NCBI GenBank assembly: GCA_041671125.1
Contig: JBAZCA010000003.1
Location: 689-64,688, forward strand
Length of the DNA stretch: 64,000 nucleotides
From: Patescibacteria group bacterium
GTDB lineage: Bacteria > Patescibacteriota > Patescibacteriia > Patescibacteriales > JBAZCA01
Reading direction: 5' to 3'
Positions 4,491 to 62,470 of the stretch are shown here, piece by piece. The notes under the pieces were generated by a model. That model made no database searches. It was not told where the DNA came from and was given only the letters and a program-made list of their open reading frames with translations. Made by a program: the position numbers and the translations under genes. The first letter of the stretch is position 1. Each line of letters begins with the position of its first letter.

Positions 4491-4533
4491 CAAATAACAG
4501 CCTGTGTTACGTGTTCCATGTTATGTGTTATGT
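4484..4533. repeat. inverted heptamer array (CATAACA-type units) between ruvC and the first pilin-fusion gene
   Basis: acacataacaaataaca / loop / tgtgttacgtgttccatgttatgtgttatgt. The two arms are reverse-complementary arrays with a 7-nt period. Confidence 0.7.
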
Positions 4534-4547
4534 TTAGATAAAACTCC

Positions 4548-5459
4548 ATGTCTAAAAAATCCGTAAAAATTCTTATCATCTCTAATTTGCTGTTTTTAGT
4601 TTTTTGTTTCACGCTTTTTCCCTCTTTGGCAAACGCCTGTAATTGCATGTGCTCTTTTAGCGGCGGCGCGGAACAATACGTCGGTACAGCTTCTGATAAT
4701 AATTGCAATTATTTTTGGTGCGATACTACCAAAGGCATGTCCGGCAGTCCGCATTGCGCTACTGACTCAACCCAGCAAACCGGCGCCGCCAATTTCACCC
4801 CCCAAATCGGCATTCCGGGTTCGGAGTTCCAGCAGGGCGCGTCCATCGCGGTTTCCAATAATACGGCCACTATCGCCAATTATGTCAAAGCCATTTACAA
4901 ATATTTAATCGGCATCGTCGGGATTACGGCGGCCATAATGCTTATGGTCGGCGGCGTAGTCTGGCTTACGGCCGGCGGCTCGCCGGAGCGAGTCAAACAG
5001 GCGCAGGATTATATCGTCGGCTCTCTAACCGGATTAGCCTTGGCTTTAGGATCTTTTTTAATTTTGGGCATGATAAATCCAGCCTTGGTGAATTTCAGGA
5101 TTTCGGGGATTGGAACGGTAAGTAGCCCTGCTCCATCCTCATCCACGACAGTGTCGGGCGTATCAACTACGGGATGTTGTAACGGCAGATATGGTTGCAT
5201 TGCTCCGTCAAAAGATGATTGCAATAATAATGGCGGAAACTGGCTTGACGCGACTAGCATAAATTACACGTGTGAAAACAACTATACTTGTACTGAAATA
5301 AAGAAAGAAGAGTTGGGGTGTTGTGAATTTTACGCGTTTATGAAGATTGGAAAAACCTGCCAGGGAAATCTTAATTATAGTGCCTGCATGAAGCTAGTAG
5401 ATAACCCCACCTTTAGTAAGGGTTACACGTGCGTTAGTCCTAATTGTGTTCCTCATTAA
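4548..5459 (+). CDS. secreted/membrane protein: VirB2/TrbC-like pilin core with Cys-rich N- and C-terminal regions (P1)
   Basis: Signal peptide MSKKSVKILIISNLLFLVFCFTLFPSLANA. Two-helix core IYKYLIGIVGITAAIMLMVGGVVWLTAGGSPERVKQAQDYIVGSLTGLALALGSFLIL, then a Ser/Thr linker and a C-terminal head with many Cys. Confidence 0.6.
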   Translation: MSKKSVKILIISNLLFLVFCFTLFPSLANACNCMCSFSGGAEQYVGTASDNNCNYFWCDTTKGMSGSPHCATDSTQQTGAANFTPQIGIPGSEFQQGASIAVSNNTATIANYVKAIYKYLIGIVGITAAIMLMVGGVVWLTAGGSPERVKQAQDYIVGSLTGLALALGSFLILGMINPALVNFRISGIGTVSSPAPSSSTTVSGVSTTGCCNGRYGCIAPSKDDCNNNGGNWLDATSINYTCENNYTCTEIKKEELGCCEFYAFMKIGKTCQGNLNYSACMKLVDNPTFSKGYTCVSPNCVPH

Positions 5460-5539
5460 AGCCATACTTTCTTCCCCGCGCCCGGCGGGAGTTTCCAGCA
5501 GGGACTCCCGCTCAAAGAAAAACAATTCTACAAATCCCC

Positions 5540-6724
5540 ATGCTAAAAAATTTCTTAAAACCGCTATTATTTTTCTGTTATCTGTTATCTGTTTTCTGTT
5601 TTCTGGCAATTCCCGCTCAGGCCATAAGTGATAGTTCTCCATACTGGGGCGATTTTGTCGCGCCACCCATACAAATCCCTATTCCGACCGTAAGTATAAC
5701 CAAAGATTCGGTTAAGTGCGAAGGCGACTACTGCGAAATCCCCTGGATCGGCCAATACGTCGCCGGCATCTATAAATACGCGATCGGCGTGGTCGGGATA
5801 ATCGCGGCCATCATGCTCATGGTCGGCGGAGTCAGATGGCTAACAGCCGGCGGCAACGCCTCAGCCGTGACAGACGCTCAAAGTTACATAACCGGCAGTC
5901 TCACCGGTCTGGTCTTAGCGCTTTTATCCTACACAATTCTTTATACCATCAACCCGGCGCTCGTATCATTTAAGCCGATCAGGGTAAAGATGGTGGAGAA
6001 GGTAGATATAATGAGCAATACCGGGGGATTAAGCTGCAGCGCTATAACCAATGAAAGCGAATGCAATGCGGATAAGCAACAATTAGGCTATGAATTTTAT
6101 AAAGGCGCGGAGTGTCCTGGCGCGGCTGATGCCTGCAAAAACAATCTCGAAGATTACAACGGTTGCATGAGCGGAAGAATGTGCTGTTGCACGAGAAGCG
6201 CGCAAGCTGGGTGTTCCTGGGCAACAGATCCAACGGATACCACCTGCGGAAATAACGCCCGGCAGGTTTCCGAGTACAGTAAATGCGGAACCAATACCGG
6301 AGGCATGTCCACTTGCTGTTGCAATTGGGCGAGCGAAGGGGGAGGGGACGCACAAAAATTATTAAACTGCATACAGGGCGCAACATCCGGTTTTGGAAGC
6401 GGTTCAATAAAAGGCTCAACTGAATCAAATAAACAGTGTTGCGAAAATTGGACTCCAAGTTGCGGACACTCCCAAACTAGATCAAATTCTTGCCACTTTG
6501 GATGCAAGAATGGATACCAGACCATGGCTATCGATTGGGGGTTGGGAGGTTCTAGAGATTGTAATAAAATTTGCGAAACAGCAAAAAATATTAGCTCGAA
6601 ATGTTCAGGTGACATCAAAGGTTCAATACTTGGACCTACTTTCTGTCCATCATGTAGCGGTTATAATCCATATCAAGATCATGACGATCATTTTCATATG
6701 AGTGTTAAGGGATGTATTCAATAA
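5540..6724 (+). CDS. secreted/membrane protein: pilin-like core fused to a Cys-rich head, possibly a LAS-type metallopeptidase (P2)
   Basis: Start moved to the ATG at 5540, giving signal peptide MLKNFLKPLLFFCYLLSVFCFLAIPAQA. Core IYKYAIGVVGIIAAIMLMVGGVRWLTAGGN and linker FKPIRVKMV. The head has CC/CCC runs and ends SCHFG..AIDWG..DHDDHFHMSV. Confidence 0.6.
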   Translation: MLKNFLKPLLFFCYLLSVFCFLAIPAQAISDSSPYWGDFVAPPIQIPIPTVSITKDSVKCEGDYCEIPWIGQYVAGIYKYAIGVVGIIAAIMLMVGGVRWLTAGGNASAVTDAQSYITGSLTGLVLALLSYTILYTINPALVSFKPIRVKMVEKVDIMSNTGGLSCSAITNESECNADKQQLGYEFYKGAECPGAADACKNNLEDYNGCMSGRMCCCTRSAQAGCSWATDPTDTTCGNNARQVSEYSKCGTNTGGMSTCCCNWASEGGGDAQKLLNCIQGATSGFGSGSIKGSTESNKQCCENWTPSCGHSQTRSNSCHFGCKNGYQTMAIDWGLGGSRDCNKICETAKNISSKCSGDIKGSILGPTFCPSCSGYNPYQDHDDHFHMSVKGCIQ

Positions 6725-6729
6725 ATACT

Positions 6730-7302
6730 ATGAGCAAAAAAAAATTGATAATTATTTTTTTGATAACAACAGTATTAACTATGGGAGGATTTTTTCTGTT
6801 CCGAAAAAAAATTTCAAAAAAATGTGTTAATTTAAAAGGAGACAACCAAGCCATTTGCATAAAGGAAGAAGCGGTTAATAGCGGCAATTTAAAAATGTGC
6901 GGACAAATTTTCAATAATAACTTGAAATACTGGTGTTATTATGAAATCGCCGATAAAAACAACGATCATAAAATATGCAAGAACCTAAGTGAATCCGACA
7001 ATTGTTACTTGAAAATCGCCATAAACTTAAAAGATGAAAAAATTTGCGAAAAAATTTTTCAAAAAGATATTAAGGCTTATTGCATAATCAACGCGGATCC
7101 CGAATGTCTTCCAAGTAAATTCTATACAATAGACAACGAAGGAAAATTCAATTGCGCTGACTCAAAAATCAAAAAAGAATGCGAGGTGAATGTAAACTGC
7201 CAGTGGAGTTATTATGAAAATAATACCGGCTCAAGCGACTGTACCTGCTGTCCCAAAGACCCGAATAAACAGCCTGACCGGTGCCTGGAAAAGGGGGAAT
7301 AA
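6730..7302 (+). CDS. membrane-anchored/secreted Cys-repeat protein (P3)
   Basis: ATG at 6730 lies 5 nt after the P2 stop. N-terminal hydrophobic helix, then about three 24-aa repeats of the form IC..I......C(Y)..IA... Confidence 0.5.
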   Translation: MSKKKLIIIFLITTVLTMGGFFLFRKKISKKCVNLKGDNQAICIKEEAVNSGNLKMCGQIFNNNLKYWCYYEIADKNNDHKICKNLSESDNCYLKIAINLKDEKICEKIFQKDIKAYCIINADPECLPSKFYTIDNEGKFNCADSKIKKECEVNVNCQWSYYENNTGSSDCTCCPKDPNKQPDRCLEKGE

Positions 7303-7337
7303 ATTTGTAATAGCTGATTACTAAATTAATTCGGAGC

Positions 7338-8528
7338 ATGAATAAAAAACTGAAAATATTTTTAACTTTTTTCCTTTTTGTCGCTTCTGTTTTTTTCTTC
7401 CCTTTTATTGCCCTGGCCGCCGACAAATGGATTCCGCCGACTTTGCAAATATCCATTCCGACCCTAACCGGATTCAGCGCGCCGGAGAAGTGCGATACGG
7501 CGCCGGACGGCCAGCCGATTTATTGCGTCGGTTGGATCGGCGAATATATCGGCGCGATCTATAAATACGCGATCGGCATTATCGGCATTGTCGCGGCTAT
7601 CGCCTTAATGATTGGCGGCGCTAGATGGCTTACGGCCGGCGGAAATCCTTCGGCCGTTAAAGACGCCCAAAGCTGGATTACCGGCGCGATTACCGGCCTC
7701 ATAATCGGCCTCGCTTCATACCTAATACTCTATCAAATCAATCCGAACCTGGTGATTTTTAAGCCGATCAGGGTAAAGATGGTAAAAGAAGTAGCAATCA
7801 GCTCGGTAAACGATCGTCTTATAAATTGCTCAATAAAATCGGCTTCGGAATGCGCCATCGGCTCTAACGGAATGAAAACTGACGATTCATGGAATAAATG
7901 CGCCAAACCAACTTGCGCCCCGGATGATATAGGCTGTCTGTCGCAAGTCTGCTGTTGTTTTGAAAGTCCCCTGCCTAACTGCCAATGGGAAACTGACTGC
8001 TCCGCTGGACGCGAACCGGCCGACGGCGCCGGTTGCGGAACTTTTTACGGCGGACTGGCTGAGAAATGCTGTTGTTCAAAGGCAACCGGAGGATGTAATC
8101 CGGCGGAAACAGGAGCTTGCTCGCCGAAACTTCTTCAGGCAAACGGCGGCAACTGTTTTGGAAGCAACATAAATGAAGCATCAGCAATATGCCAAAAAGA
8201 AAGTTCCGGAAACGAAACAAATACCAATCCTCAGGCAAAATGCAGTTATAATGGTAATAAATATCCTGTCGTAATCGGCTTATTTCAAATTAATATCAGC
8301 GCCAATATAGTAAGAGATTCGTCAGGTAACTCTTACAACTGCCGTTCCGCTTTTGACAAGCCATATTCTGATAAATCACCAAACTGCAACATAAATAATT
8401 GGGGTTTGTACGACCAATGCAAAAAACTTATGGAATCAGCCGCCAATAATATTGCGACTGCATGCAGTTTATCAAACAACGGAAGCAACTGGGGTAAATG
8501 GGTGGCCAACGATAATTGTAAATATTAG
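7338..8528 (+). CDS. secreted/membrane protein: pilin-like core fused to a Cys-rich linker and an SLT/lysozyme-like head (P4)
   Basis: Signal peptide. Core IYKYAIGIIGIVAAIALMIGGARWLTAGGN and linker FKPIRVKMV are shared with P2. The C-terminus carries ICQKESSGNE....VIGLFQIN, resembling the ES...GLMQ signature of lytic transglycosylases. Confidence 0.6.
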   Translation: MNKKLKIFLTFFLFVASVFFFPFIALAADKWIPPTLQISIPTLTGFSAPEKCDTAPDGQPIYCVGWIGEYIGAIYKYAIGIIGIVAAIALMIGGARWLTAGGNPSAVKDAQSWITGAITGLIIGLASYLILYQINPNLVIFKPIRVKMVKEVAISSVNDRLINCSIKSASECAIGSNGMKTDDSWNKCAKPTCAPDDIGCLSQVCCCFESPLPNCQWETDCSAGREPADGAGCGTFYGGLAEKCCCSKATGGCNPAETGACSPKLLQANGGNCFGSNINEASAICQKESSGNETNTNPQAKCSYNGNKYPVVIGLFQINISANIVRDSSGNSYNCRSAFDKPYSDKSPNCNINNWGLYDQCKKLMESAANNIATACSLSNNGSNWGKWVANDNCKY

Positions 8529-10732: not shown

Positions 10733-13700
10733 TTATATCTGCTGAAACTTCTTGTTCGGATTAAATCCGGTTCCCGAAGGGATTAGGCGGCCGATAATTA
10801 CGTTTTCTTTCAGTCCTTCAAGATAATCAATTTTGCCGTTAATGGCGGCTTCAATTAAAACGCTTGACGTATTCTGGAACGAGGCGGCCGAGAGGAAGCT
10901 GTTCGTTGTAAGCGATGATTTGGTTATGCCAAGGAGTAATGTTTCCCCTTCAGATTCTTTTAATTTTTTTGATTTGGCTTCAATATTAGCGCGTTCAAAA
11001 ACGGCCTTTTCAACGATTTCTCCGGATAAAAGATCAGTGCCGCCGGCATCCTGGACGTAAATCCGGGAAAACATCTGCTTGGCGATTATTTCAATATGCT
11101 TTTCGTTTAAAGGCTGGCCTTGGGAAGAATATACGAACTGAATCTCTTTAATAATATTCTTTTGGGCCTCAAATTTCCCTTTAAGCCGGTAAAGCTGCTG
11201 GAGATCGAGCGACCCTTCCGTGAGCTGGTCGCCCTTATTAACAAGATCACCATCCTTAACCCAAACGGCAAAGCCTTTTGGAATTATGAACTCTTTGACT
11301 TTTTCGGCGCTTACTTTGACTTTGACGCATTTTTTATCCACCTGAACCAAGCCTTCTTTCTTGGCTTTTATTTCTTTCGCGCCGATAGTGAAAAGCGTGT
11401 CATTGGCTTTAACTTCGTCTCCGTCGGCCACGAGAATATTCGGTTTTAGCGCTTTCACCTTTTTCGTTTTTACCGCGAGGCCGTCCTTTTTATCCGATTT
11501 TTCCGAAGCCAGCTGCGCGTCTTTTATCGCTTCGGCAAAATAATATTTATCCGAATCAGTCCCTTCATAATAAACTTTTAAAATCTTGCTTTGAGAATTA
11601 TTGACGACCATTTTTCCCCGCTCATCCTCAATTATCCTTTCTGCCATTTCAATTTCCACCCGGCCGGAAACGTCAGCCATGTAGGCTTTTCTCTTCGGTG
11701 GACGGGCTTCAAAAATTTCTTCCACCCGGGGAAGACCCTGAGTGATGTCTTCCAATCCGGCTACGCCTCCGGTATGGAAAGTTCTCATGGTGAGCTGGGT
11801 TCCTGGTTCGCCGATTGATTGGGCGGCGATAATGCCAACCGCTGTTCCCATTTCCACCAGCTTGTTATAACCGAGATCAAAGCCGTAGCATTTGGCGCAG
11901 ACCCCACGGTTTAAATGACAGCTTAATACCGAGCGGACGCTGGCTTCGTTGATATTTTCCTTAGAAAGTTCTTCGGCTATTTTCTCCGAAATAAGTTCTC
12001 CGGCTTTAACCAGAACTTTTCCTTTGGCGTTTTTTAAATCTTTCGCCATCACCCGGCCGATAAGCCGCCGGGAAAGAGGAACGTTCATTTCCTCACTCTC
12101 GGTTAAGGTGATTAAGATGCCTTCTTCGTCGCCACAATCGTCCTTAGTAATAATTACGTCTTGGGCCACGTCTATGAGACGCCGGGTAAGGTATCCCGCG
12201 TTAGCGGTCCTTAGGGCCGTATCAGACAAACCTTTGCGAACGCCATGAGTGGAAATAAAATATTCAAGCACTTCAAATCCGGTTTTAAAGTTTCCTTTGA
12301 CCGGCAATTCAATAATATCTCCGGTCGGGGAAGTAACAAGGCCTTTCATTCCAAGAATCTGCGTCAGCTGGGCCCAGGAACCGCGCGCCCCGGACTCAAT
12401 CATGGAATAGATCGGCCCGTCTACCGGCAGACTGGCTTTGCATATTTCAGTAACCCGGTCTTTTACGCCGGTCCAAAGCTCAATGATTTTACTGTAGCGC
12501 TCGGAATCGGTTAAAAGTCCTTCTTCATACTGTTCCTGAATAATATCAACCTGTTTTTCGGCGTCACCTACCAACTTATCCCGTTCGGGTAAAGCCGGCA
12601 AATCGCCGATGCCCCAGGACAATCCGCTTTTGGTTATGTAGAAAAAACTGGCGGTTTTTAAGTTATCCAAAAAGTCCACGGTTTCTTCTTCGCTATAATG
12701 GAGCAGGCTCTTCCTTATAAGTTTTTTCAGCATTCCCTTGTCCGCCACTTCATTGACATAGCGGAGCTTTTCCGGCAGGACTTCGTTAAAAATTATCCGT
12801 CCGACGGAAGTTTCAACCATCTCTTTGCCTATTTTCACTTTTACCGAATGGTTCAATTTTACATGGCCGAGCTCATAAGCCAGCTTGGCCTCTTCCGCTC
12901 CGGAAAAATATTTCATTCCTTTTTCCCCGTTTTTCTCCACCGCGCCTGAAGGCTTTTTCTCGTCGGCCAGATTAGTCAGATAAAAGGCTCCCCAGACCAT
13001 ATCTTGCGAAGGCGCGACTATCGGGTCGCCGGTCGCCGGTTTTAAAAGGTTATGGGAAGAAAGCATTAAATCCCGGGCTTCGGCAATAGCTTCCTCGGTA
13101 AGAGGAACATGGACGGCCATCTGGTCTCCGTCAAAGTCGGCATTAAAAGCCGAACAAACCAAAGGATGAATCTGAATAGCTTTTCCTTCTATGAGTATCG
13201 GGCGGAAAGCCTGAATGCCGAGGCGGTGCAAGGTCGGGGCGCGATTCAAAAGCACGTATGACTCTTTGGTAATATTTTCTAAAATATCCCAGACTTCATT
13301 ATGGCCGGCTTCAATATAACGGCTGGCGCTCCGGACGTTATGGACCAACCCCATTTCAATAAGTTTACTGATTACAAAAGGCTTAAAAAGCTCCAAAGCC
13401 ATTACTTTGGGAAGGCCACATTCGTAAAGCCGCAGTTTGGGGTTGACGACGATTACGCTCCGGCCCGAATAATCAACTCTTTTTCCGAGGAGGTTCTGCC
13501 TGAAGCGTCCCTGCTTTCCTTTTAAGGAATCAGCCAGAGATTTTAGATTCCTTTTCTGGCCGGTGGAAGCGGTAACGGTTTTAGTATGGCGAGCCGAATT
13601 GTCAATTAAGGCGTCAACGGCTTCCTGAAGCATCCTTTTTTCGTTGCGGCAGATTACTTCCGGGGCGTTTAGCTCTAAAAGCTGTTTTAAGCGGTTATTC

Positions 13701-14855: not shown

Positions 14856-17800
14856 TTATTGCGCTCCTTCTTTCTTCTCGTCTTTATCGGCAATATAGTT
14901 TTCTCCGAAATCCACCTTTTGCATGTCTTCGTTTAAAAGCTCAACATCCAGACCAAGGCCTTTTAATTCCCTGACTAAAACATTGAAAGATTCCGGCACG
15001 TTTAGTTTCCTGATTTTTTCGCCCTTAATAATGGATTCATAAGCCTTGCTTCTTCCCGGAACGTCATCCGATTTAATAGTGAGCATTTCCTGCAGGGTGT
15101 GGGAAGCGCCATAGCCTTCCAGTGCCCAAACTTCCATTTCCCCAAACCGCTGTCCGCCGAATTGGGCTTTACCTCCCAAAGGCTGCTGGGTAATAAGCGA
15201 GTAAGGGCCGATTGACCGCTGGTGGACTTTATCTTCAACCATATGGTTAAGCTTTAGCATATACTTATAGCCAACGGTTATTTGGTGGTCATACGGGACG
15301 CCGGTCTTACCGTCATAAAGCGTCACCTTACCGTGTTCGGGCAGTCCGGCCCGCTTTAGTTCATCGGTAATGGTTTTCTCGCTGATTCCGTTTAGAGCCG
15401 GAGTGGCGACCGAGTAGCCGAGCTTTTTCGCGGCAAACCCAAGATGAGTTTCTAAAAGCTGCCCGAGATTCATCCGGGAAATAATGCCTAAAGGCGAAAG
15501 GATAATATCCGCCGGAGTGCCATCCTCAAGATACGGCATATCTTCCACCGGGACAATTTTGGAAATTACGCCTTTATTGCCGTGGCGGCCGGCCATTTTG
15601 TCGCCGATCTGAATTTTCCTTAAATTAGCTACTGAAATCTGGATAGTTTTTATCACGCCCGAAGAAAGCTTGTCGCCTTCTTCGCGGGAAAATATTTTTA
15701 TATCAACAACTTTCCCGTGTTCGCCATGTTCAAGATATAAAGACGAATCGCGGACGTCTTTGGCTTTCTCACCAAAAATCGCCCGGAGCAGTTTTTCCTC
15801 GGCTGAAAGTTCAGTCTCGCCCTTTGGGGTAATCTTGCCGACTAAAATATCGCCGGAAGAAACTTTAGCCCCGATCCGGACAATGCCTTCTTCGTCCAGA
15901 TTCTTTAGTTTTTCTTCCGAAATATTAGGAATATCGGAAGTAACCGCTTCAGGACCGAGTTTTGTGTCGCGAACGTCAATGGAATAGTCTTCAATATATA
16001 TGGAAGTATAAGTATCGTTAGCGACCATGCGTTCGGAAATAATAATCGCGTCTTCGTAGTTAAAACCCTCCCAGGTCATGAAGGCGACTAAGACGTTTTT
16101 TCCCAAAGCCAGCTCGCCTTTGTCAATCGCCGATGAATCGGTCAATACCTGCCCTTTTTTCACTTTCTCGCCTTTGGATACGATTGGTCGCTGATTGATG
16201 CAGGTGGAAGCGTTGGACCTTAAAAATTTCGTAAGCTGGTAGGATGCGGTTTTTCCGCCTTTCTCGCGAATGGCGATTGATCCGGAATCGGATTTTATCA
16301 CTTCGCCATCTTCTTCGGCGATTAAAATATGGCCAGAATAGCGGGCGGCCAGAGCTTCAACCCCGGTGCCGATAATCGGCGCCTCGGCGTTAATAAGCGG
16401 CACGGCCTGGCGTTGCATGTTGGTACCCATGAGCGCCCGTTGGCCGTCGTCATGTTCCATAAAAGGTATGAGCGAGGTGGCGACTGAAATTATTTGGTTA
16501 GCCGCTACCCCAAGATAATCTACTTTATCAGTATCCTCGGTGGCCGGCTGGCCGAATTTTCTCACTTCGGCCCTTTCAACCGTAAAATGATTATTATTAT
16601 CGGTCGGGGTAGTCGCCGACGTCGTAATGCTTCTTTCTTCTTCCAGGGCGTCAAGATAAACGATTTCATCGGTTACTACCGGCTTGATCGGGATAGTCTT
16701 GTTGTGTGGCACTTTTTCCCGAATTTCCCTAGCCTTTTCCTTACTAATCACTTCGCCCGCTTTAACCAACAGTTTGCCTTTAATTTCTTTCTGATCCTCT
16801 GTTTGGGATTCCCGCCCGCCTGACGCGTTCGGGCGGGTGGAATTTTGAATTTGTAATTTTATCTCGTGTATATCTTTCCGGGCGATTTTTCCTTCGGTAA
16901 TTTTCGGATCATTTTCCACGTCATGCAAAACCTTGCGGTAAGGCGCTTCCAAAAATCCATAATTATTCAGCCGGGCAAAACTCGCCAAATGGTTGACCAG
17001 ACCGATATTCGGGCCTTCAGGCGTCGCGATCGGACAAATGCGGCCGTAGTGAGTGGAGTGCACGTCCCGGACGTCAAAACCGGCCCGTTCACGGGTTAAG
17101 CCCCCGGGACCCATGGCTGAAAGCCTTCTTTTATGCTCCAGCTCGGACAACGGGTTGGTCTGATCCATGAACTGGGAAAGCTGGGAAGACATGAAAAATT
17201 CCCGCACCACGCCGATTACCGGACGGGCGTTAATAAGTTTGTTTGGCGTCAGGGCGTCCATGTCTATGGTGCTCATCCGGTCGCGAATAATCCGCTCCAT
17301 TCTCGCTAGTCCGACGCGAAATTTATTTTGCAAAAGTTCGCCGATGGCCCGAACGCGGCGGTTCCCGAGGTGGTCAATATCATCTTCTTTTTTCTGAGTG
17401 ATATTCAGGCGGATGATTTCGGATAAAATGGCAATCAAATCCTCTTTTCTTAAAATCCTGGTTTCTTTATTTACCGGAATGTCAAATTTAAAACGCTTAT
17501 TCAGCTTATAGCGGCCGACCCGGCCGAAATCATAACGGTCAAAACGGAAAAACATGGAGTAGATAAGCTGGCGGGCGTTGTCAGTCGTAGCGAGATCGCC
17601 CGGCCGGATCCTTTTATAGACTTCTTTTAAGCCGTCGGCTTCGTTCTGCGCTGCGTCCTTACCTATAGTCGCGGCAATGTAATTTTCCGCTTCGTCAAAT
17701 TCTTTATATAGACTTTTAAACAAAGCGTGAATTTCTTCGTCGGCGCCGAATCCGAAAGCCCGAAGAATAGAAGTGGCGGCCACTTTTCTTTTCCGGTCAA

Positions 17801-18323
17801 TCCGCACCCAGATGACTTTATTGGCGTCGGTTTCAAACTCAAGCCAGGCGCCGCGGTTAGGGATTATTTTAGCGCCGTAGTACTTTCGGCCGCGGATATT
17901 TTCCGATGAAAAAATTACGCCGGCTGACCGGATAAGCTGGGAAACAACGACCCTTTCAATTCCGTTAATAATAAAAGTACCATTCTTGGTCATGATCGGC
18001 AGGTCGCCCAAAAATACTTCCTGCACGGCGCTTTGGCCGGTGCGCTTATTCGTCAGCCTGGTTTTTACGCGGAGCGGAGCTTCGTAGGTGATATTTTTAG
18101 CTTTGCTTTCGCTTTCGTTGAATTTCGGGTCATCCAGGTAATAGTCTTCAAAGTATAATTCCAGGTCCCGGCCGATAAAATCCGTTACCGGGGATATTTC
18201 ATCAAACAAATCAGTTAGTCCTTCGCCCATGAACCAGTCAAAAGAATTTTTCTGAAGCTCAATCAGGTTTGGAGTGAAGGATACTTTTGGAACTTCGGCT
18301 AAATACTTTCTTTTATTAGACAT
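14856..18323 (-). CDS. rpoB: DNA-directed RNA polymerase subunit beta
   Basis: 1155 aa with conserved GDKMAGRHGNKGV and RFGEMEVWALEGYGA. Sits upstream of rpoC in the canonical order. Confidence 0.97.
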   Translation of the reverse strand: MSNKRKYLAEVPKVSFTPNLIELQKNSFDWFMGEGLTDLFDEISPVTDFIGRDLELYFEDYYLDDPKFNESESKAKNITYEAPLRVKTRLTNKRTGQSAVQEVFLGDLPIMTKNGTFIINGIERVVVSQLIRSAGVIFSSENIRGRKYYGAKIIPNRGAWLEFETDANKVIWVRIDRKRKVAATSILRAFGFGADEEIHALFKSLYKEFDEAENYIAATIGKDAAQNEADGLKEVYKRIRPGDLATTDNARQLIYSMFFRFDRYDFGRVGRYKLNKRFKFDIPVNKETRILRKEDLIAILSEIIRLNITQKKEDDIDHLGNRRVRAIGELLQNKFRVGLARMERIIRDRMSTIDMDALTPNKLINARPVIGVVREFFMSSQLSQFMDQTNPLSELEHKRRLSAMGPGGLTRERAGFDVRDVHSTHYGRICPIATPEGPNIGLVNHLASFARLNNYGFLEAPYRKVLHDVENDPKITEGKIARKDIHEIKLQIQNSTRPNASGGRESQTEDQKEIKGKLLVKAGEVISKEKAREIREKVPHNKTIPIKPVVTDEIVYLDALEEERSITTSATTPTDNNNHFTVERAEVRKFGQPATEDTDKVDYLGVAANQIISVATSLIPFMEHDDGQRALMGTNMQRQAVPLINAEAPIIGTGVEALAARYSGHILIAEEDGEVIKSDSGSIAIREKGGKTASYQLTKFLRSNASTCINQRPIVSKGEKVKKGQVLTDSSAIDKGELALGKNVLVAFMTWEGFNYEDAIIISERMVANDTYTSIYIEDYSIDVRDTKLGPEAVTSDIPNISEEKLKNLDEEGIVRIGAKVSSGDILVGKITPKGETELSAEEKLLRAIFGEKAKDVRDSSLYLEHGEHGKVVDIKIFSREEGDKLSSGVIKTIQISVANLRKIQIGDKMAGRHGNKGVISKIVPVEDMPYLEDGTPADIILSPLGIISRMNLGQLLETHLGFAAKKLGYSVATPALNGISEKTITDELKRAGLPEHGKVTLYDGKTGVPYDHQITVGYKYMLKLNHMVEDKVHQRSIGPYSLITQQPLGGKAQFGGQRFGEMEVWALEGYGASHTLQEMLTIKSDDVPGRSKAYESIIKGEKIRKLNVPESFNVLVRELKGLGLDVELLNEDMQKVDFGENYIADKDEKKEGAQ
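16811..16858. repeat. GC hairpin plus heptamer array lying in frame inside rpoB
   Basis: cccgcccg..9 nt..(tt)cgggcggg followed by tggaatt ttgaatt tgtaatt. Translated as KLQIQNSTRPNASGGRES. The same CCCGCCCG...TTCGGGCGGGTG hairpin plus heptamers occurs intergenically at 52412-52507. Confidence 0.7.
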
Positions 18324-20624: not shown

Positions 20625-20649
20625 CGAGGAAACTCCTCGAGATTTTTTT
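20625..20649 (+). terminator. weak intrinsic terminator after the small ORF
   Basis: cgagga / aac / tcctcg stem-loop followed by a T7 run. Confidence 0.35.
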
Positions 20650-21679
20650 AAAAAAATTTTCTTAAGACTCTAAAAACACTATATACCTTATACCACTTAT
20701 TTTCAAAGACCATATCAAACGTCCCCGGATAACTTATTTCTCTGCCGCCGAATCCCCGTTTAAAGCGTGTTACGCCCGGCCATTTTTTTTCGTCAATGCC
20801 GTAAAAATCATAATACCGGTAACCCTGGCACTTTGCCAGCTTAATCGTTTCCCACTGCAGAAGAAAAGGCGCCATTACGTTCCGGGATTCGCTTGAAGAG
20901 GCGCCGTGGATATAAGTAACCGTGTCCCCAAAAAATCCAACAATATTGGCCGCTATAACTCTACTGTTATATACGGCAAAATATAATTTAATCTTCAAGT
21001 TCTCCTTGCTGTTTTTTTCCCGGCTACAGTCTAATGACAGCATTTTGTCATAATATTTCTCCCCATGCAAACGAAAACCATCCCTCTTGCAGGTATCATC
21101 CAATAAGCACCAAAAACTATCAAATTCACCTGCCTCGGCCTCCCTGATAATTACCCCTTTTTTTTCCGCCAGCCGGATATTATATCTCGTTTTCGGATGC
21201 ATTTCTTTTAACAACTCTTCCTCGCTTACTGACAGGTTAAGGATTGCGGTTTTTGACGGCTGAACATCCAGCGTCCGCGCAAATTCCAAATTCTCCGCCA
21301 AAGGCGGATCCGCCTCGGGCAGGCAAATTCCAAATTCCAAATTATTTTCCGGTTCAAAACGCAGGAATATCGCATTTTGCTGTTTCGCCAAATCTTTAAT
21401 TGCGTCAAAAAATAATTTGTAATTTGGAATTTGTAATTTGTAATTAACGATCGGTCCTCTCGGACAATAAAAATAACTCTTGCCGAAAAAAAGCGGCTTT
21501 TTTATGAGTGTAGCCGCGGCAACCAGTTTTCCGCCGTCCTCCGCCCCCAGCCTGAATACTTTCTGTCCGGCCTTTTCCTGAAATTCTCCCCATTCCCAGG
21601 ATTGGTGAAAAACGCTGTTATCGGAATTACCAATAAATTCATTCAATATTTCTTTATGTTTAATAAAAACAATATTCAT
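20648..21679 (-). CDS. FemAB-family peptidoglycan interpeptide-bridge aminoacyltransferase (FemX-like)
   Basis: FHQSWEWGEFQEK, RYNIRLAEKKGV and YIHGASSSESRNVMAPFLLQWETIKLAKCQGYRYYDFYGI are typical of FemAB. Confidence 0.8.
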   Translation of the reverse strand: MNIVFIKHKEILNEFIGNSDNSVFHQSWEWGEFQEKAGQKVFRLGAEDGGKLVAAATLIKKPLFFGKSYFYCPRGPIVNYKLQIPNYKLFFDAIKDLAKQQNAIFLRFEPENNLEFGICLPEADPPLAENLEFARTLDVQPSKTAILNLSVSEEELLKEMHPKTRYNIRLAEKKGVIIREAEAGEFDSFWCLLDDTCKRDGFRLHGEKYYDKMLSLDCSREKNSKENLKIKLYFAVYNSRVIAANIVGFFGDTVTYIHGASSSESRNVMAPFLLQWETIKLAKCQGYRYYDFYGIDEKKWPGVTRFKRGFGGREISYPGTFDMVFENKWYKVYSVFRVLRKFF

Positions 21680-22292: not shown

Positions 22293-23612
22293 TCATAACC
22301 CATAGACCACAACACCTCTATTATCCGGGGCATGCTTTATAAGTCTTCTTAAGACGCTAAACTCAGGAATTAAAAAATTGCTTTCTATTAAAATCACCCG
22401 GTCGCTCCCGCCGTGCGCCTCAGCCAGATATTCGCCGGTCTCGGCGTCAGTCATATTATTCAGCTTCATTTTTATTATATCATAAACCGGGCTCACAATC
22501 TCAATTTCTTCGCCGACCCTTAACGTATTATGCACTTTAATACCTAACAAATATTTCTTATTTCTTACTTCTAACTTCTTGATTTTTACCACCTGCCCGC
22601 AAAATTCCCAATCGCAATTTTCTTTGGAAGTCGCGAGATTTTGCGCCAGCTTTCCCTCGTTAAAAAGAAACCCGGTCGTATAACCGCGGTTAAAAATTTT
22701 CTCTTCCAGATCGCTTTGCAACCGGCTGACCAGTTTAGCGTTACTCAAATTTTCCATGGCTTTTTTGTAAGCGCCAACCACGGTCGCGATATAATACACG
22801 CTCTTGGTCCGGCCTTCAATTTTAAAAGAAGTAACCCCGGCTTCAGCTAATTCCCGCAGATGTTTTATCAAGCACAAATCTTTTGAATTCAAAATATAAG
22901 AATAACCATCTTCCTCATAAAGTTCAAAGATGCCATTAACACCATCAGGGATGATCAACTTCTCACTTTTTACTTCTAACTTCTTACTTTTAACTTGATA
23001 CGGCCACCGGCAGGGCTGGACGCAGTCGCCGAGATTGGCGCTCCGGCCGGTTAAATATTTTGATAAAAAACAGCGACCCGAATAGGCCATGCACATGGCG
23101 CCATGGACAAAATATTCCAGTTCCAGTTTTGGCGCGGCTTTTTTTATGGCTTTAATATCTTTGAGGCTGGTTTCTCGCCCGAGAACAATCCGGCTGACAC
23201 CCTCTTTAAACCAGAACTTCGCGGCCGATGAATTTATACAATTCGCCTGGGTGGAAAGATGGATTATCGCTTTTGGCCAGATTTTTTTTACCGCGCTCAG
23301 TATGCCCGGATCGGAAATCACCAGGGCGTCCACTTTCATTTTTTTCATCTCCCGGATAATGCCGGGCAGTTTCTTAAAATGATCCTCGTGGGCGAAAATA
23401 TTAAACGTCGCGTAAACCCGCTTTTCCATCTTATGAGCGTAATCCACGGCTTTCTTAACAGACTTTAAATCAAAATCGTTAATCCGCGCCCGGAGCGAAT
23501 AATCCGGGATGCCGAGATAAACCGCGTCCGCCCCGAAAGCGAAAGCGGTCTTCATTTTTTCCAGGTTGCCGGCGGGAGCCAGGAGTTCAATTCTATTATT
23601 ATTCCTCATCAT
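22293..23612 (-). CDS. peptidase U32 family protein
   Basis: ELLAPAGNLEKMKTAFAFGADAVYLG and the ...EGR.KS..Y.. region. Contains two in-frame ACTTCTN heptamer arrays (22553-22587, 22958-22999). Confidence 0.85.
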   Translation of the reverse strand: MMRNNNRIELLAPAGNLEKMKTAFAFGADAVYLGIPDYSLRARINDFDLKSVKKAVDYAHKMEKRVYATFNIFAHEDHFKKLPGIIREMKKMKVDALVISDPGILSAVKKIWPKAIIHLSTQANCINSSAAKFWFKEGVSRIVLGRETSLKDIKAIKKAAPKLELEYFVHGAMCMAYSGRCFLSKYLTGRSANLGDCVQPCRWPYQVKSKKLEVKSEKLIIPDGVNGIFELYEEDGYSYILNSKDLCLIKHLRELAEAGVTSFKIEGRTKSVYYIATVVGAYKKAMENLSNAKLVSRLQSDLEEKIFNRGYTTGFLFNEGKLAQNLATSKENCDWEFCGQVVKIKKLEVRNKKYLLGIKVHNTLRVGEEIEIVSPVYDIIKMKLNNMTDAETGEYLAEAHGGSDRVILIESNFLIPEFSVLRRLIKHAPDNRGVVVYGL

Positions 23613-26190: not shown

Positions 26191-27111
26191 CTAGACATTC
26201 ATCCCCCGAAGCGCCGCGATTCTTTCCTCTACCGGCGGGTGGGTCATGAAAGCTTTGGCAAAAAATCCGGTTTTCTTCCGTCCGATCGCGTCGGATTTAA
26301 AGGGCGAAACAATATAAAGGTGGGCGGTCGCCCGGTTGGCGGCTTCCAGCGGTTCCCGGTCAGAGGAAATTTTTTCTAAAGCCCGGGCGAGTCCTTCGGG
26401 ATAGCGGGTTAAGAGCGCGCCGTCGGCGTCAGCGGCGAATTCGCGTTTTCGGGAAATGGCCATTTGCATGAGCATGGCAAAAATTGGCGCCAGAATGGAA
26501 AGAGCTATGGCGACAATCATGATTATGAGCTGTAATTGTCCGCCGCCGCGTTCTGAGTCCCGCCTTCTTCCGCCGAAAAAAGACCAATGCCGAAACCAGT
26601 CGGCGAGTAAAACTATCAAACCGACCATAACGGTTACGATAGTAGAAATTAAAATATCCCGGTTGCCGACATGCGATAATTCATGGGCGATCACGCCTTC
26701 CAACTCAGCCTTTTCCAGTTTCTGCAATATGCCGGTGGTAACCGCTATAACCGCGTGTTTTGGGTCGCGGCCGGTCGCAAAAGCGTTCGGCGCCGTGTCA
26801 TTAATAATATAAATTTTCGGCATTGGCAGTCCGGCGGTAATGCAAAGGTTTTCAACAATATGGTAAAGTTCCCTATTAGAATCGTGGTCAATGGGCCGGG
26901 CAGAGCTCATGGCTAAAACAATTTTATCGGAAAACCAATAGCTCGCGAACGAGGAAATCATGCTAAAACCCACGGCAATATATAAAATCGCCGAGTCGTT
27001 CATGGCCTGCGAAAAAACATAACCGACAATCATTATAAACACGAAAAACCCGGTCATTAGTAGCCAGGTTTTTCTTTTATTGGAATCGCTGTGAGTATAG
27101 AGGGTGGGCAT
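26191..27111 (-). CDS. htpX: zinc metalloprotease HtpX (M48)
   Basis: HELSHV zinc motif, four TM segments, and adjacency to lemA. Start moved to the ATG at 27111; the upstream MLCVTCPMLRV extension is encoded by a heptamer array. Confidence 0.9.
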   Translation of the reverse strand: MPTLYTHSDSNKRKTWLLMTGFFVFIMIVGYVFSQAMNDSAILYIAVGFSMISSFASYWFSDKIVLAMSSARPIDHDSNRELYHIVENLCITAGLPMPKIYIINDTAPNAFATGRDPKHAVIAVTTGILQKLEKAELEGVIAHELSHVGNRDILISTIVTVMVGLIVLLADWFRHWSFFGGRRRDSERGGGQLQLIIMIVAIALSILAPIFAMLMQMAISRKREFAADADGALLTRYPEGLARALEKISSDREPLEAANRATAHLYIVSPFKSDAIGRKKTGFFAKAFMTHPPVEERIAALRGMNV

Positions 27112-27181
27112 AACACGTAACATAGGACACGTAACACATAACAATTAATTATTTTTGTTACGTGCTATGTGTTGCGTTCAG
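27112..27181. repeat. inverted heptamer arrays (YRTAACA units) in the lemA-htpX spacer
   Basis: cataaca cgtaaca taggaca cgtaaca cataaca ... tgttacg tgctatg tgttgcg. The arms are mutually complementary. Confidence 0.7.
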
Positions 27182-48782: not shown

Positions 48783-48869
48783 AACTCGTAACCCATAACT
48801 CATAACCTGATCTCTGCAACTTTTTGTGATGAGTGAAAGTTACGAGTTATGGGTTACGAGTTATGAGAT
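48783..48869. repeat. near-perfect inverted heptamer arrays (RTAACYC units) in the glyA-folD spacer
   Basis: ataactcgtaacccataactcataac (from 48781) and gttacgagttatgggttacgagttatgag (48839-48867) are reverse complements with one mismatch, separated by about 32 nt. Confidence 0.8.
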
Positions 48870-52411: not shown

Positions 52412-52507
52412 CATTATTCATAATTCGTAATTCATAATTCAATTTTTTCATTTTACATTGTCATTTTTATTTTCCCGCCCGACTGAACGCCAGTCGTTCG
52501 GGCGGGT
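52412..52507. repeat. heptamer array plus CCCGCCCG...TTCGGGCGGG hairpin, intergenic copy
   Basis: cattatt cataatt cgtaatt cataatt caatttt ... then cccgcccgactgaacgccagtcgttcgggcggg followed by tgattttt. Related to the in-frame rpoB copy at 16811-16858. Confidence 0.7.
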
Positions 52508-52550
52508 GATTTTTACATTTTAATTTAAACTATCATATCATCCTCCTAAT

Positions 52551-52579
52551 AAAAAACAACCCCGGATTACCGGGATTGT
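52551..52579 (-). terminator. intrinsic terminator after the ferredoxin gene
   Basis: On the minus strand: acaatcccgg taat ccggggttgt followed by TTTTTTATT. Confidence 0.6.
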
Positions 52580-52589
52580 CTGGGAGCTT

Positions 52590-57805: not shown

Positions 57806-57822
57806 TGTTAATTTTCTCCCTG

Positions 57823-57896
57823 TGCGCCCAGATGGACTTGAACCATCGACCCCGGCTTTATAAGAGCCGTGCTCTAACCAGCTGAGCTATGGGCGC
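57823..57896 (-). tRNA. tRNA-Ile (anticodon UAU)
   Basis: 74-nt cloverleaf: GCGCCCA/TGGGCGC acceptor, CGGCT-CTTATAA-AGCCG anticodon arm (TAT at positions 34-36), GATGG-TTCAAGT-CCATC T arm. Confidence 0.85.
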
Positions 57897-61374: not shown

Positions 61375-61448
61375 GGACAATTAGCTCAGTTGGTTAGAGC
61401 GCACGCTTCACACGCGTGAGGTCGGAGGTTCGAGCCCTCCATTGTCCA
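61375..61448 (+). tRNA. tRNA-Val (anticodon CAC)
   Basis: 74-nt cloverleaf: GGACAAT/ATTGTCC acceptor, CACGC-TTCACAC-GCGTG anticodon arm, GGAGG-TTCGAGC-CCTCC T arm. Confidence 0.9.
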
Positions 61449-61452
61449 CGAA

Positions 61453-61540
61453 TAAGGTTCGTCCAGCATTCGCTCCCCGCCCGGCGGACTTGTCTGGCGT
61501 ATGCTGGATGCCGGGCGAGTCCACTAGTGACCACAAAAAA
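61453..61540 (+). repeat. conserved tRNA-Val trailer, copy B
   Basis: Differs from copy A only at GGAC->CCCC and CGT->TGA. Inverted relative to copy A. Confidence 0.8.
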
Positions 61541-61543
61541 ACC

Positions 61544-61730
61544 AGAGATGCGAGCATTGAAAAATTTCGGAAAAATCATGAGCGTGGAAGCCGTGTAAAA
61601 TTCCACTGTCTGAGGACCCGCCGAATCGGCGGGGACGAGTTTGGAATTTTACTAGGCTTCACAGCGAATGATCCAAAATTTTTCCTGCTCGCAATTTTTG
61701 CGCAACTTTTTCTAAAAAAGTTGCAAAAAT
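61544..61730 (+). ncRNA. about 190-nt highly structured repeat element, copy 2
   Basis: Collinear with 54133-54323. Helix changes are compensatory (gtaaaattcca/tggaattttac, gcaac/gttgc, gaagcc/ggcttc). Followed by a terminator. Confidence 0.5.
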
Positions 61731-61752
61731 CCATCGCGCAAACTGCCTCTAT

Positions 61753-61786
61753 AAAAAAACGCTTTAAACAAAAAGCGTTTTTTTTA
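61753..61786. terminator. bidirectional intrinsic terminator (end of the tRNA-Val/trailer/element unit and of clpP)
   Basis: aaaaaaacgcttt aaacaa aaagcgtttttttt; the stem is flanked by an A-run and a T-run. Confidence 0.65.
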
Positions 61787-61808
61787 ATTCACTTAAACCC
61801 GCGACTCT

Positions 61809-62387
61809 CTACTTCGTAATAATCTTATCAATAATCCCGTATTTCTTCGCTTCTTCGGCGCTCATAAAATTATCACGGTCAGTATCTTTTTCTATGGTCG
61901 CGAGTTTTTGCCCGGTGTGGCCGGCTAAAATATTATTCAGCCGGTCTTTTAATTTTAAAATCCGCTCAGCGCCGATTTTTATATCGGTCGCCTGCCCCTC
62001 AATCCCGCCCATGATCTGATGGATCATTATTTCCGAATTCGGGAGAGCGAATCTTTTGCCTTTAGCTCCGGCGGCGAGTAAAAACGCGCCCATGCTGGCC
62101 GCGAGGCCGACGCAGATTGTTGAGACGTCCGGCTTTATATACTGCATGGTGTCATAAATAGCGAGGCCGGACGAAACCGAGCCGCCCGGGGAGTTTATAT
62201 AAAATTTAATTTCCTTGTCTTTATCCTGGGCGGCTAAAAATAAAAGTTGGGCGATAACGATATTGGCCGTATGGTCGCCGATCGGTTCGCCTAAAAATAT
62301 GATCCGATCCTTTAAGAGCCGGGAATAAATATCGTAAGCCCGTTCGCCGTGGCTGGATTTTTCAATGACTGTTGGTATTAATGGCAT
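61809..62387 (-). CDS. clpP: ATP-dependent Clp protease proteolytic subunit
   Basis: [33 protein letters not shown] (catalytic Ser) and MIHQ (His). Start moved to the ATG at 62387 (MPLIPTVIE). Confidence 0.95.
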
Positions 62388-62470
62388 ATTTTTCTCATAA
62401 CTCATAACCCATATCTCGCAACGCCTGTTTATAAATCGGGTTATGGGTTGCGCTTTATGGGTTGCGAGAA
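62388..62470. repeat. inverted heptamer arrays (CATAACY/CGCAACC units) in the clpP 5' UTR
   Basis: ctcataactcataacccatatctcgcaac ... gggttatgggttgcgctttatgggttgcgag; arms are complementary. On the mRNA strand the proximal arm supplies ATG triplets at 7-nt spacing just upstream of the clpP start. Confidence 0.7.

Follow-up and report, generated by a model that had tools for sequence, protein, structure and literature searches.

The window analyzed here is a 64-kb stretch (64,000 nucleotides of contig JBAZCA010000003.1) from a Patescibacteria group bacterium, a member of the Candidate Phyla Radiation (CPR). Its rpoB gene, encoding the beta subunit of RNA polymerase (RNAP), contains a small GC-rich hairpin adjoined by three AT-rich heptamers. 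The same hairpin, of a type designated here family 1, occurs a second time around 52.4 kb, in non-coding DNA. The features concerned are the following:

14856..18323, minus strand: rpoB, the host gene, an intact open reading frame (ORF) of 1155 amino acids (aa)
16677..16928, minus strand: lineage-specific insertion domain of RpoB, LHDVEND...IPIKPV, ~84 aa, residues ~466-549
16809..16839, plus strand: family-1 GC hairpin, short variant, TTCCCGCCCG-cctgacgc-GTTCGGGCGGGTG, 31 bases
16839..16859, minus strand: three AAATTNC-type heptamers, sense AAATTAC AAATTCA AAATTCC
52412..52441, plus strand: CATAATT/CGTAATT heptamer array, 4.3 copies, 31 nt from copy B
52472..52508, plus strand: family-1 GC hairpin, 37-nt copy (copy B), TTCCCGCCCG actgaacgccagtc GTTCGGGCGGGTG, non-coding

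A GC-rich hairpin and heptamers read in frame in rpoB

The original prediction had described the hairpin and heptamers as an uninterrupted part of an essential ORF, and indeed the sequence it quoted lies at this place in an RpoB of 1155 aa whose reading frame is uninterrupted and in which six of the six RpoB Pfam domains are present. On the plus strand, the hairpin reads TTCCCGCCCG CCTGACGC GTTCGGGCGGGTG and is followed by GAATTTT GAATTTG TAATTTT. Its arms CCCGCCCG (16811-16818) and CGGGCGGG (16830-16837) enclose a loop of 11 nt, the second arm being followed, 3' on the plus strand, by tggaatt ttgaatt tgtaatt. As folded DNA, the hairpin reaches -10.9 kcal/mol (z = -3.2). Its consensus, terminator-like strand is the plus strand, antisense to rpoB. 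While this strand has the GC stem and the T-rich tail of an intrinsic terminator, the position of the copy, mid-gene and antisense, is not the 3' end of a transcription unit.

On the sense strand, the codons of the hairpin (ACC CGC CCG AAC GCG TCA GGC GGG CGG GAA) specify TRPNASGGRE, the reading (S)TRPNASGGRE corresponding to RpoB residues ~495-505, and those of the heptamers (AAA TTA CAA ATT CAA AAT TCC) specify KLQIQNS. The RpoB frame thus runs through the segment as ...KLQIQNSTRPNASGGRES..., and the predicted peptides include LQIQNSTRPNASGGR and IKLQIQNSTRPNASGGR.

Tandem Repeats Finder (TRF) detects about 25 period-7 arrays of head-to-tail 7-nt units in the window. The rpoB triplet, an array of the AAATTNC type, is not reported at score 30, being too short and weak alone. 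However, its 21-mer AAATTACAAATTCAAAATTCC has five other matches in the window with at most three mismatches, where 0.02 are expected, and all five lie within heptamer arrays of the FemAB, IleRS, and ValRS genes.

The segment is an insertion at the tip of a lineage-specific domain

No solved RNAP has a counterpart of RpoB residues ~466-549, which agrees with the initial description of a lineage-specific loop. In solved bacterial RNAPs, 2-3 residues, near E. coli beta residue 598, connect the conserved blocks on either side. The insertion domain is also present in CPR and Chloroflexi relatives. It has the motif KGK[LV]LVKAGE[LV]IS in common with rpoC and may be of the beta-beta' module 2 (BBM2), or sandwich-barrel hybrid, type. 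This type was reportedly defined by Iyer and colleagues in 2004 and by Lane and Darst in 2010, with a motif of the form G-x-[IV]-x-[AK]-G-E-x-I. While no solved RNAP covers the segment, an AlphaFold 2 (AF2) model of it is beta-rich, with strands 64-70 (IHEIKLQ) and 91-99 (KEIKGKLLV) at a predicted local distance difference test score (pLDDT) above 90, and between them a coil 71-90 (IQNSTRPNASGGRESQTEDQ) at pLDDT ~63-66. In this model, the hairpin peptide is the tip loop of a beta-hairpin in the insertion domain.

Alignment of RpoB with near and distant homologs bears out that the segment is an insertion (P and L numbers designate related proteins and loci). The relative P0122 on L093 has 89% aa identity and reads DIYEVKLHKTKSGENEEVKGKL at the tip, being 13 codons shorter exactly where the window has DIHEIKLQIQNSTRPNASGGRESQTEDQKEIKGKL. 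At the DNA level, L093 lacks 39 nt corresponding to ATTCAAAATTCCA plus the hairpin; most of the window's heptamer segment 16839..16859 is absent from it. P0001 (64% aa identity over a 222-aa segment) reads ..ENST|SQGED.. and is without exactly 27 nt, the hairpin size, between NST and SQ. About 70 other relatives (75-81% aa identity) have a short tip, such as EIKDNGGQ, none of them with the hairpin peptide. The segment, a copy of a dispersed hairpin repeat, is therefore an insertion absent from all sampled relatives, and it is not conserved at the protein level in lineages without the repeat; the outcome that the original prediction had named as its refutation was thus not obtained.

In P0123, ~97% identical at the aa level outside the domain, the whole insertion domain of ~80 aa is gone, leaving PYRKVL-REGKKK-PVVTDEIV. 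Since this RpoB is found on two independent contigs (L094, 10001-13252, and L095, 6948-10199), the insertion domain appears dispensable in nature.

The same tip carries other hairpins in sister lineages. In L099 and L100, 85.7% identical to the window in rpoB nucleotides, a different, perfect 30-nt palindrome TCCGCCAGAGGCGGATCCGCCTCTGGCGGA (family 2) at 11471-11500 encodes SARGGSASGG, and in L096 and L097 a third type, CCCCTCTCCC...GGGAGAGGGG (family 3), encodes TPNPSPTP..GAGEGS. Three unrelated GC hairpins at one tip in sister lineages point to repeated independent insertion into a permissive site, and argue against a conserved role of this sequence in RNAP. L100 and the window contig both come from ENA sample ERZ27249449, which thus holds two related populations (rpoB 85.7% identical in nucleotides) with different hairpin families at the same RpoB codon.

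A second copy in the window and its chance expectation

The intergenic locus that had been predicted to hold the same hairpin does so: copy B, TTCCCGCCCG ACTGAACGCCAGTC GTTCGGGCGGGTG, occupies non-coding positions 52472-52508, between the ferredoxin gene terminator (52554-52581, minus strand) and the uvrC start (52365). The minus strand carries the ferredoxin gene (63 aa), its terminator, and uvrC alike. Copy B is situated downstream of this separate, better terminator and does not itself conform to the terminator rule; its T-tail strand has no upstream gene.

The claim that both loci carry one and the same composite repeat holds in part. Each has the hairpin together with heptamers, and the hairpin exists as both coding and non-coding DNA, but the architecture differs: on the plus strand, the heptamers are 3' of the hairpin in rpoB, whereas the clearest array at 52.4 kb is 5' of copy B, with weaker period-6/7 repeats on both sides. 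These T-rich repeats reach copy B (52444-52473) and pass beyond it, ATTTTTA CATTTTA following the hairpin. Hairpin and array are separable and do not form a fixed unit.

The window has exactly two occurrences of the 23 specified bases TTCCCGCCCG..GTTCGGGCGGGTG, with 0.00 expected (100 shuffles). A covariance-model scan of the whole window retrieves the same two copies only (59.6 and 43.7 bits), which match by construction because both belonged to the alignment behind the model; this exhaustive scan found no third family-1 copy. A weak match in rpoC (12050-12074; 15 bits, E = 0.07) was rejected. Near it, the DNA likeness between rpoC 12004-12035 and rpoB 16760-16791 (repeat D6) is due to the protein motif KGK[LV]LVKAGE[LV]IS of both genes and not to a repeat element. 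37-mers identical to copy B stand at non-orthologous places in L026, L032, and L039, and searching all loci by tblastn with uvrC, ferredoxin, proS, and the HD protein gave no orthologous context for copy B. A distant uvrC match in L021, ~800 nt from the hairpin of that locus, was taken as coincidence.

A dispersed hairpin family with a conserved structure

The family-1 consensus of 40 nt is TTCCCGCCCG-ACTGAAYGnnnTCAGTC-GTTCGGGCGGGTG. In its fold, the GC outer stem of 8 bp does not vary, a CGTT bulge is conserved on the 3' side, and the 5-bp inner stem is variable but paired (ACTGA/TCAGT, ACCGA/TCGGT, or TACCG/CGGTA). The inner helix is 86% paired and shows compensatory changes at two pairs (8 cells), a level not attained in any of 500 shuffles; AACG/CGTT, an alternative inner pairing, is likewise conserved. 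The rpoB copy is a short variant without the inner stem, and a near-identical variant, CCTGACGGCGTT, is found in L006.

Collections were scanned with the strict 23-base pattern, which diverged copies would escape, so that the following counts need not be true copy numbers. With one genome per GTDB species, 22 loci were obtained, 14 of them true family members, and in JGI metagenomes 66 loci, mostly family members; the remaining matches look like chance since they lie in GC-rich contigs and have unrelated loops. In all, ~60 further family-1 copies were identified, on CPR contigs and on others that are Bacteroidota-like or labelled Planctomycetota. The names in the record titles are, within the CPR, Falkowbacteria, Nomurabacteria, Minisyncoccia, Saccharibacteria, and other Patescibacteria and, outside it, Bacteroidales, Bacteroidetes, Flavobacteriaceae, and Planctomycetota. 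These phylum labels are the depositors', checked by the outer-membrane genes of three non-CPR contigs (TonB-dependent receptor with CarboxypepD_reg, outer-membrane protein beta-barrels, and OEP), which indicate that the spread across phyla is not mere mis-binning. Copy number is low, with two copies in the 64-kb window and six extra copies in 443 kb of ascertained loci.

Two matches among viral contigs lie in GC-rich contigs (54% and 61% GC), have loops off the consensus, and were put down to chance; the viral-contig scan gave no sign of phage carriage of family 1. With Rfam 15 at the gathering score, the window and 14 hairpin loci yielded only tRNAs and one 16S rRNA. Our literature search found no paper with the hairpin sequence, and a keyword search found no account of in-frame hairpins or heptamers in CPR genes.

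Some copies have particular layouts. L031 holds a family-1 inverted doublet, 363-401(+) and 437-476(-), 35 nt apart, resembling a REPIN (a doublet of repetitive extragenic palindromic, REP, sequences). Nested copies, in which a hairpin-like segment lies inside the loop of another, are found in L045 (2665-2731) and L085 (630-696). In a sediment sub-family (Ga0209536 and WOR8 metagenome contigs; L027, L030, L031, L036, L037, L041, L047, L054, L063, L067, L068, and others), the hairpin is the center of a larger palindrome, with three CTTTGTG motifs upstream, spaced by 10-11 nt, followed by TGYNATAGCTCTTAA and, downstream, CACAAAG motifs. On Bacteroidales contigs, the hairpin flanks are TACTTTTGTCTTGTGACT ... 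TCTTTTGTCTT, the upstream flank matching the Bacteroidetes -7 promoter motif, TAnnTTTG.

In-frame copies in other genes

The phenomenon is general. While family-1 copies are mostly intergenic, several of them just upstream of gene starts, others lie within long ORFs whose identities were confirmed by Pfam:

GyrB, copy before KIHIQRYKGLGEM (L015, L020, L058): peptide SPARTAEASRSGGN
TsaD (L084): peptide VSRPTERQSFGRVQ
Sua5/YrdC (L056): peptide ISRPTEQSFGRVQ
TatD (L019): peptide ARPTEQSFGRA
HhH-GPD glycosylase-like (nth-like) protein (L009): peptide TPARTPTAGGT
Intein in a giant ORF, at least 2992 aa open and running beyond the locus end (L039): peptide SPARTTGVQSGGK
Small membrane protein of two Saccharibacteria (L019, L075): APARTTVQSGGK / TPARTTVQSGGK

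The family-1 core of 31-40 nt adds 9-14 aa when in frame. Embedded copies are found in both orientations, and four of the six consensus frames are open; the frame used in rpoB has a TGA in the full-length consensus, which the short variant avoids. The TsaD, Sua5, and TatD copies, in which the consensus strand is the sense strand, are without the T tail of many intergenic copies. The gyrB copy, found in at least six independent assemblies, stands at the same codon in three species-level lineages and is 97.5-100% identical, versus 69-92% in its flanks, a comparison suggestive of nucleotide constraint but confounded by the search pattern.

GC hairpins were also seen in frame in the Mur ligase gene of L099 (8068-9570; peptide PERPPARQNRSGGE) and in the thiamine pyrophosphate (TPP)-enzyme gene of L094 (17412-18353; peptide PLSSHRRGAGG), one of the two being diverged family-1-like (CCAGCCCGAACGAC...CGTTCTGGCGGG) and the other of family 3 (CCCCTCTCC..GGAGAGGGG).

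Heptamer arrays as seats of hairpins

In-frame period-7 arrays, of unit types TAATTCN, TTTGGAA, TAATTTG, TCTGTTR, and AACTTCT, are situated mid-gene in several window genes:

IleRS, four arrays: peptides LKIKNYELRIDN, DNRQQITDNR, NSKFQIPNSKN, FRIKNYELRIKNLP
ValRS, one array: peptide NSKSQIPNSKN
UvrC, one array: peptide RIKNYELRIKNLP
FemAB, two arrays: peptides PENNLEFGI and VNYKLQIPNYKLFF
Peptidase U32, two arrays: peptides KIKKLEVRNKKY and VKSKKLEVKSEKL
ThiI-like gene, one array: peptide ITNYKLQIKND
Pilin-like gene, one array: peptide LLFFCYLLSVFCFL
Positions of the in-frame arrays: 5574-5605, 21324-21343, 21413-21445, 22552-22585, 22957-22996, 28314-28339, 31406-31440, 31532-31562, 32591-32621, 33394-33432, 42809-42840, 51717-51751
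21280..21343, plus strand: FemAB composite, CAAATTC heptamer array split by a GC palindrome, in frame, NNLEFGICLPEADPPLAENLEF
21294-21323: family-2 palindrome TCCGCCAAAGGCGGATCCGCCTCGGGCAGG, core GGCGGATCCGCC, within the FemAB gene (20648..21679, minus strand)

The arrays yield peptides of 7-aa periodicity (e.g. NYELRIK, NSKFQIP, KKLEVRN) and are indels between close relatives; no solved structure covers the heptamer-coded segment of UvrC. In a comparison of nine syntenic genes among four genomes, heptamer arrays and/or GC hairpins account for at least 7 of 12 internal indels with a length of at least 5 aa.

Comparison with related loci separates arrays from hairpins. At the FemAB composite site, which resembles that of rpoB in kind, the window has a TTTGGAA array in reverse orientation with a family-2 palindrome of 33 nt splitting it; L094 has a pure AAATTCC array, and L093 neither array nor palindrome. 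At a second FemAB site, the AATTACA array is intact in the window, and the AATTTTC/AATTTCC arrays of L094 and L099 are split by 21-nt hairpins. In U32, the AAGAAGT-type array of the window is unbroken, and the same array in L094 is split by a 51-nt family-2 hairpin (about 6159-6209), TCCGCCCGAGGC..27 nt..GCCTCGGGCGGA, which sits between TTA and GAA, between two heptamer units, and without target duplication. Arrays occur without hairpins, and different hairpin families occur in the same arrays; hairpins and heptamer arrays are therefore separable modules, the arrays being preferred seats of the hairpins. Over the flanks of all family-1 copies, lag-7 autocorrelation rises modestly (mean 0.367 versus 0.305 in controls), and the sediment sub-family has CTTTGTG repeats of period 10-11 instead of period 7. 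The link between hairpin and heptamers thus exists in some lineages and is not universal.

Other arrays of the window, of the CATAACY/GTTATG type, form inverted pairs and could make long hairpins. The pair at 48.8 kb (48779-48806 and 48839-48866), whose arms are 96% complementary across a 32-nt spacer, is situated between the start of folD and the end of glyA. Arrays of this type also lie at 62386-62422, 4503-4533, and 27109-27143, and 4503-4532 is 90% complementary to 27109-27138.

Other features of the window

ARAGORN calls a tRNA-Ile with anticodon TAT at 57822-57896 (minus strand). Most bacteria read AUA by means of a lysidine-modified CAT anticodon, and this call therefore hints at an unusual AUA decoding strategy. 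Repeats lie beside tRNA-Val genes and around an unannotated ORF (61442..61819): 57629-57715 matches 61453-61539 (inverted, 94%) and 54224-54322 matches 61631-61729 (direct, 89%). Beside ruvC, 4548-8528 holds three tandem paralogous genes with shared repeats of 108-262 nt, a small family expansion; their counterparts in related loci are weakly type IV secretion system (T4SS)-pilin-like.

Discussion

These data lead us to consider it likely that the rpoB segment is selfish DNA akin to Rickettsia palindromic elements (RPEs) or REPs, a short family-1 copy tolerated in a permissive loop of RpoB. It would accordingly represent not an adaptation of RNAP but a tolerated passenger. The copy would be a recent arrival in rpoB, next to or within the AAATTNC heptamer array, postdating the split from the 86-89% identical relatives. 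Because its length is a multiple of three bases and no stop codon occurs in the frame used, we infer that the insert is simply translated, adding 9-13 residues (..IQNSTRPNASGGR..) to a surface loop, and that it is close to neutral. Furthermore, since the terminator-like strand is antisense to rpoB, this orientation probably avoids termination of rpoB transcription.

As to movement, our best guess is a trans-acting enzyme recognizing the folded single-stranded hairpin, like the Y1 transposases of REPs and IS200/IS605, with insertion without target duplication and preferentially into A/T-rich heptamer arrays. The absence of target duplication (one clean family-2 pair), the asymmetric bulge, and the inverted doublet and nested copies make such a guess plausible. 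Template switching or gene conversion at heptamer arrays would be an alternative route. A wider and more tentative proposal, possible but on the doubtful side, is that hairpins and arrays are the footprint of an undescribed trans-acting mobilization system with substrates common to Patescibacteria and diderm phyla (Bacteroidota, Planctomycetota), perhaps via DNA exchange between episymbiont and host; these substrates would have evolved to be coding-compatible (four of six consensus frames open) and would thereby be a main source of surface-loop length variation in essential CPR proteins.

Several points weigh against the selfish-element view of the rpoB segment. No empty/filled pair of family 1 close enough to fix the exact ends was found, the rpoB flanks having diverged. 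Translation of the insert is deduced from its frame. No Pfam match to a transposase, Y1, or RAYT (REP-associated tyrosine transposase) protein occurs among the window ORFs, and clustering of ORFs across ~60 loci revealed no protein family recurring beside the hairpin except generic glycosyltransferases. Two copies in 64 kb and six extra in 443 kb are a low number, unlike typical REPs. Finally, near-identity over at least 23 bases across phyla is hard to reconcile with purely neutral DNA and hints at either some function or highly active spreading, although part of this cross-phylum conservation is ascertainment, as the search pattern required it.

The last point leads to the possibility that selection maintains the hairpin as a functional signal at the nucleic-acid level, adaptive in rpoB, be it a protein-binding site, an antisense or convergent terminator, or an mRNA structure modulating rpoB translation or decay. 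Such a signal would fit the identity of the outer stem, CGTT bulge, and TT/TG flanks across CPR, Bacteroidota-like, and Planctomycetota-labelled contigs with a co-varying inner stem, the maintenance of the gyrB copy at the same codon in three lineages above flank identity, the T-rich tail after many copies together with the fit of the rpoB copy to an antisense terminator, and the intergenic copies just upstream of gene starts. However, the rpoB copy is missing from every sampled relative, its host domain appears dispensable, and the unrelated hairpins at the same site in sister lineages would be left unexplained. Moreover, conservation is inflated, 23 of the 40 positions being fixed by the search pattern, and a match at 16-17 of the 17 free positions, partly our own estimate, is not significant alone; no Rfam family and no gene common to the contexts was found. 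On balance, we regard a selected function as unlikely.

Far less credence is due to explanations in which the element is not a genuine, translated insertion. Metagenome assemblies can mis-join at repeats, the window derives from a k141 MEGAHIT-style contig, and a related strain (L100) was present in the same sample, so that a repeat-induced chimera might have carried reads of the intergenic copy into rpoB. Yet the copies differ in the loop (31 versus 37 nt), so neither can have been pasted from the other, the insert keeps the reading frame, in-frame gyrB copies recur across many independent assemblies, and the identical 1155-aa RpoB is on record under two NCBI metagenome-assembled genome (MAG) accessions ('Patescibacteria group bacterium') as well as in JGI and ENA, on two contigs; an artefact is very improbable. 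The GC palindrome might also be ordinary coding of a Gly/Arg/Pro-rich loop beside AT-rich low complexity. GC octamers like CCCGCCCG are indeed no rarity, the window having 10 where 3.9 are expected, and TRF does not call the heptamer triplet, but coincidence is refuted by the chance tests of the 23-base pattern shared with the second locus (0.00 expected) and of the heptamer 21-mer with its matches to five other arrays (0.02 expected); the consensus is common to ~60 other loci, and the short loop variant reappears in L006. We give coincidence practically no weight. A last option is that the insert goes untranslated, by ribosome bypass, of the kind known from byp elements and T4 gene 60, or by removal from the mRNA. 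Lang and colleagues reportedly found in 2014 that Magnusiomyces mitochondria bypass palindromic GC-rich inserts lying in AT-rich coding sequence, and the rpoB hairpin is stable. Against this, all copies examined within ORFs have a length divisible by three and are stop-free in the host frame, while bypassed elements need neither; the short variant in rpoB is without the TGA that the full-length consensus has in frame, and no take-off/landing codon pairs were found. Bypass or removal is thus highly unlikely, and we retain a tolerated, probably translated selfish element as the preferred account.

To our knowledge, palindromic repeats translated inside essential genes are a textbook matter for Rickettsia only. 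The same phenomenon is now found in Patescibacteria, in RNAP, gyrase, and tRNA-modification enzymes, with a far smaller element (31-40 nt), copies of which also occur in unrelated phyla. Essential genes of a CPR bacterium would thus tolerate selfish DNA of the hairpin kind, which explains part of the unusual insertions making CPR proteins hard to align, and heptamer arrays are identified as the preferred seats of these hairpins. The loop of the RpoB domain has accepted three hairpin families and could serve as a tagging site, and the co-occurring populations of ERZ27249449 offer a natural system for the turnover of hairpin inserts. Such inserts can also mislead rpoB/gyrB marker phylogeny and gene callers. 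What moves a 40-nt hairpin across phyla is a question now testable by co-occurrence analysis.

Comparison with known systems

RPEs (Ogata et al. 2000; summarized by PMC10969869) are elements of ~150 bp in ten families, confined to Rickettsia and relatives. The parallel drawn to them in the original prediction is apt, as other family-1 copies lie in frame in gyrB, tsaD, sua5, tatD, the HhH-GPD gene, and an intein. Both RPEs and family 1 are palindromic and found both in intergenic regions and in frame in unrelated housekeeping genes, and RPEs, as family 1 probably is, are read as selfish DNA and translated as extra segments in fold-compatible positions. Family 1 nevertheless stands apart from RPEs by size (31-40 nt/9-14 aa versus ~100-150 bp/~30-50 aa), by its host, Patescibacteria and not Rickettsiales, by its tie to heptamer arrays, and by its presence in Patescibacteria and diderm-phylum contigs, as judged from described features.

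With REPs and REPINs, family 1 has in common a dispersed, imperfect palindrome of ~35 nt, an asymmetric bulge, and occasional inverted doublets (L031); the absence of target duplication, as in REPs, is seen here in one clean pair, of family 2. REPs lie outside genes, usually in hundreds of copies per genome, are species-specific, and have a conserved GTAG head and a cognate RAYT gene. Family 1, unlike them, is low in copy number, lies inside ORFs, has no GTAG, and occurs in several phyla. Indeed, one of the two copies in the 64-kb window is inside rpoB, and no RAYT or Y1 gene is present in the window or recurrent near hairpin copies.

Among terminator-like small repeats and MITEs (miniature transposable elements with inverted repeats), a review (PMC10969869) lists SPRITE of pneumococcus, Correia elements, and intragenic enterobacterial repetitive intergenic consensus (ERIC) sequences. 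Like these, family 1 is small and non-autonomous, forms a terminator-like stem-loop, and in some cases is fused in frame to ORFs. MITEs have terminal inverted repeats matching an insertion sequence (IS), target-site duplications, and a size of 50-500 bp, features not found here; the U32 pair of the window and L094 (family 2) shows no target duplication. Yeast mitochondrial GC clusters and byp elements are GC-rich palindromes invading the coding sequence of an AT-rich genome. While byp elements are skipped by the ribosome, so that frame is irrelevant, the copies described here are always in frame and stop-free.

Finally, the heptamer arrays recall long simple-sequence heptanucleotide repeats, namely the cyanobacterial short tandemly repeated repetitive (STRR) sequences and the TAACTGA repeats found in Beggiatoaceae, Cyanobacteria, and Bacteroidetes (MacGregor 2015; PMC4679880). 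The latter are tandem arrays of 2-6 units, dispersed over a genome and common to distant phyla, for which no transfer mechanism is known; they lie for the most part between genes or at protein ends, and a few are inside ORFs. The arrays of the window are likewise tandem and scattered. Unlike the known repeats, they are in frame in the middle of genes (IleRS, ValRS, UvrC, RpoB, FemAB, and U32) and serve as seats for GC hairpins.

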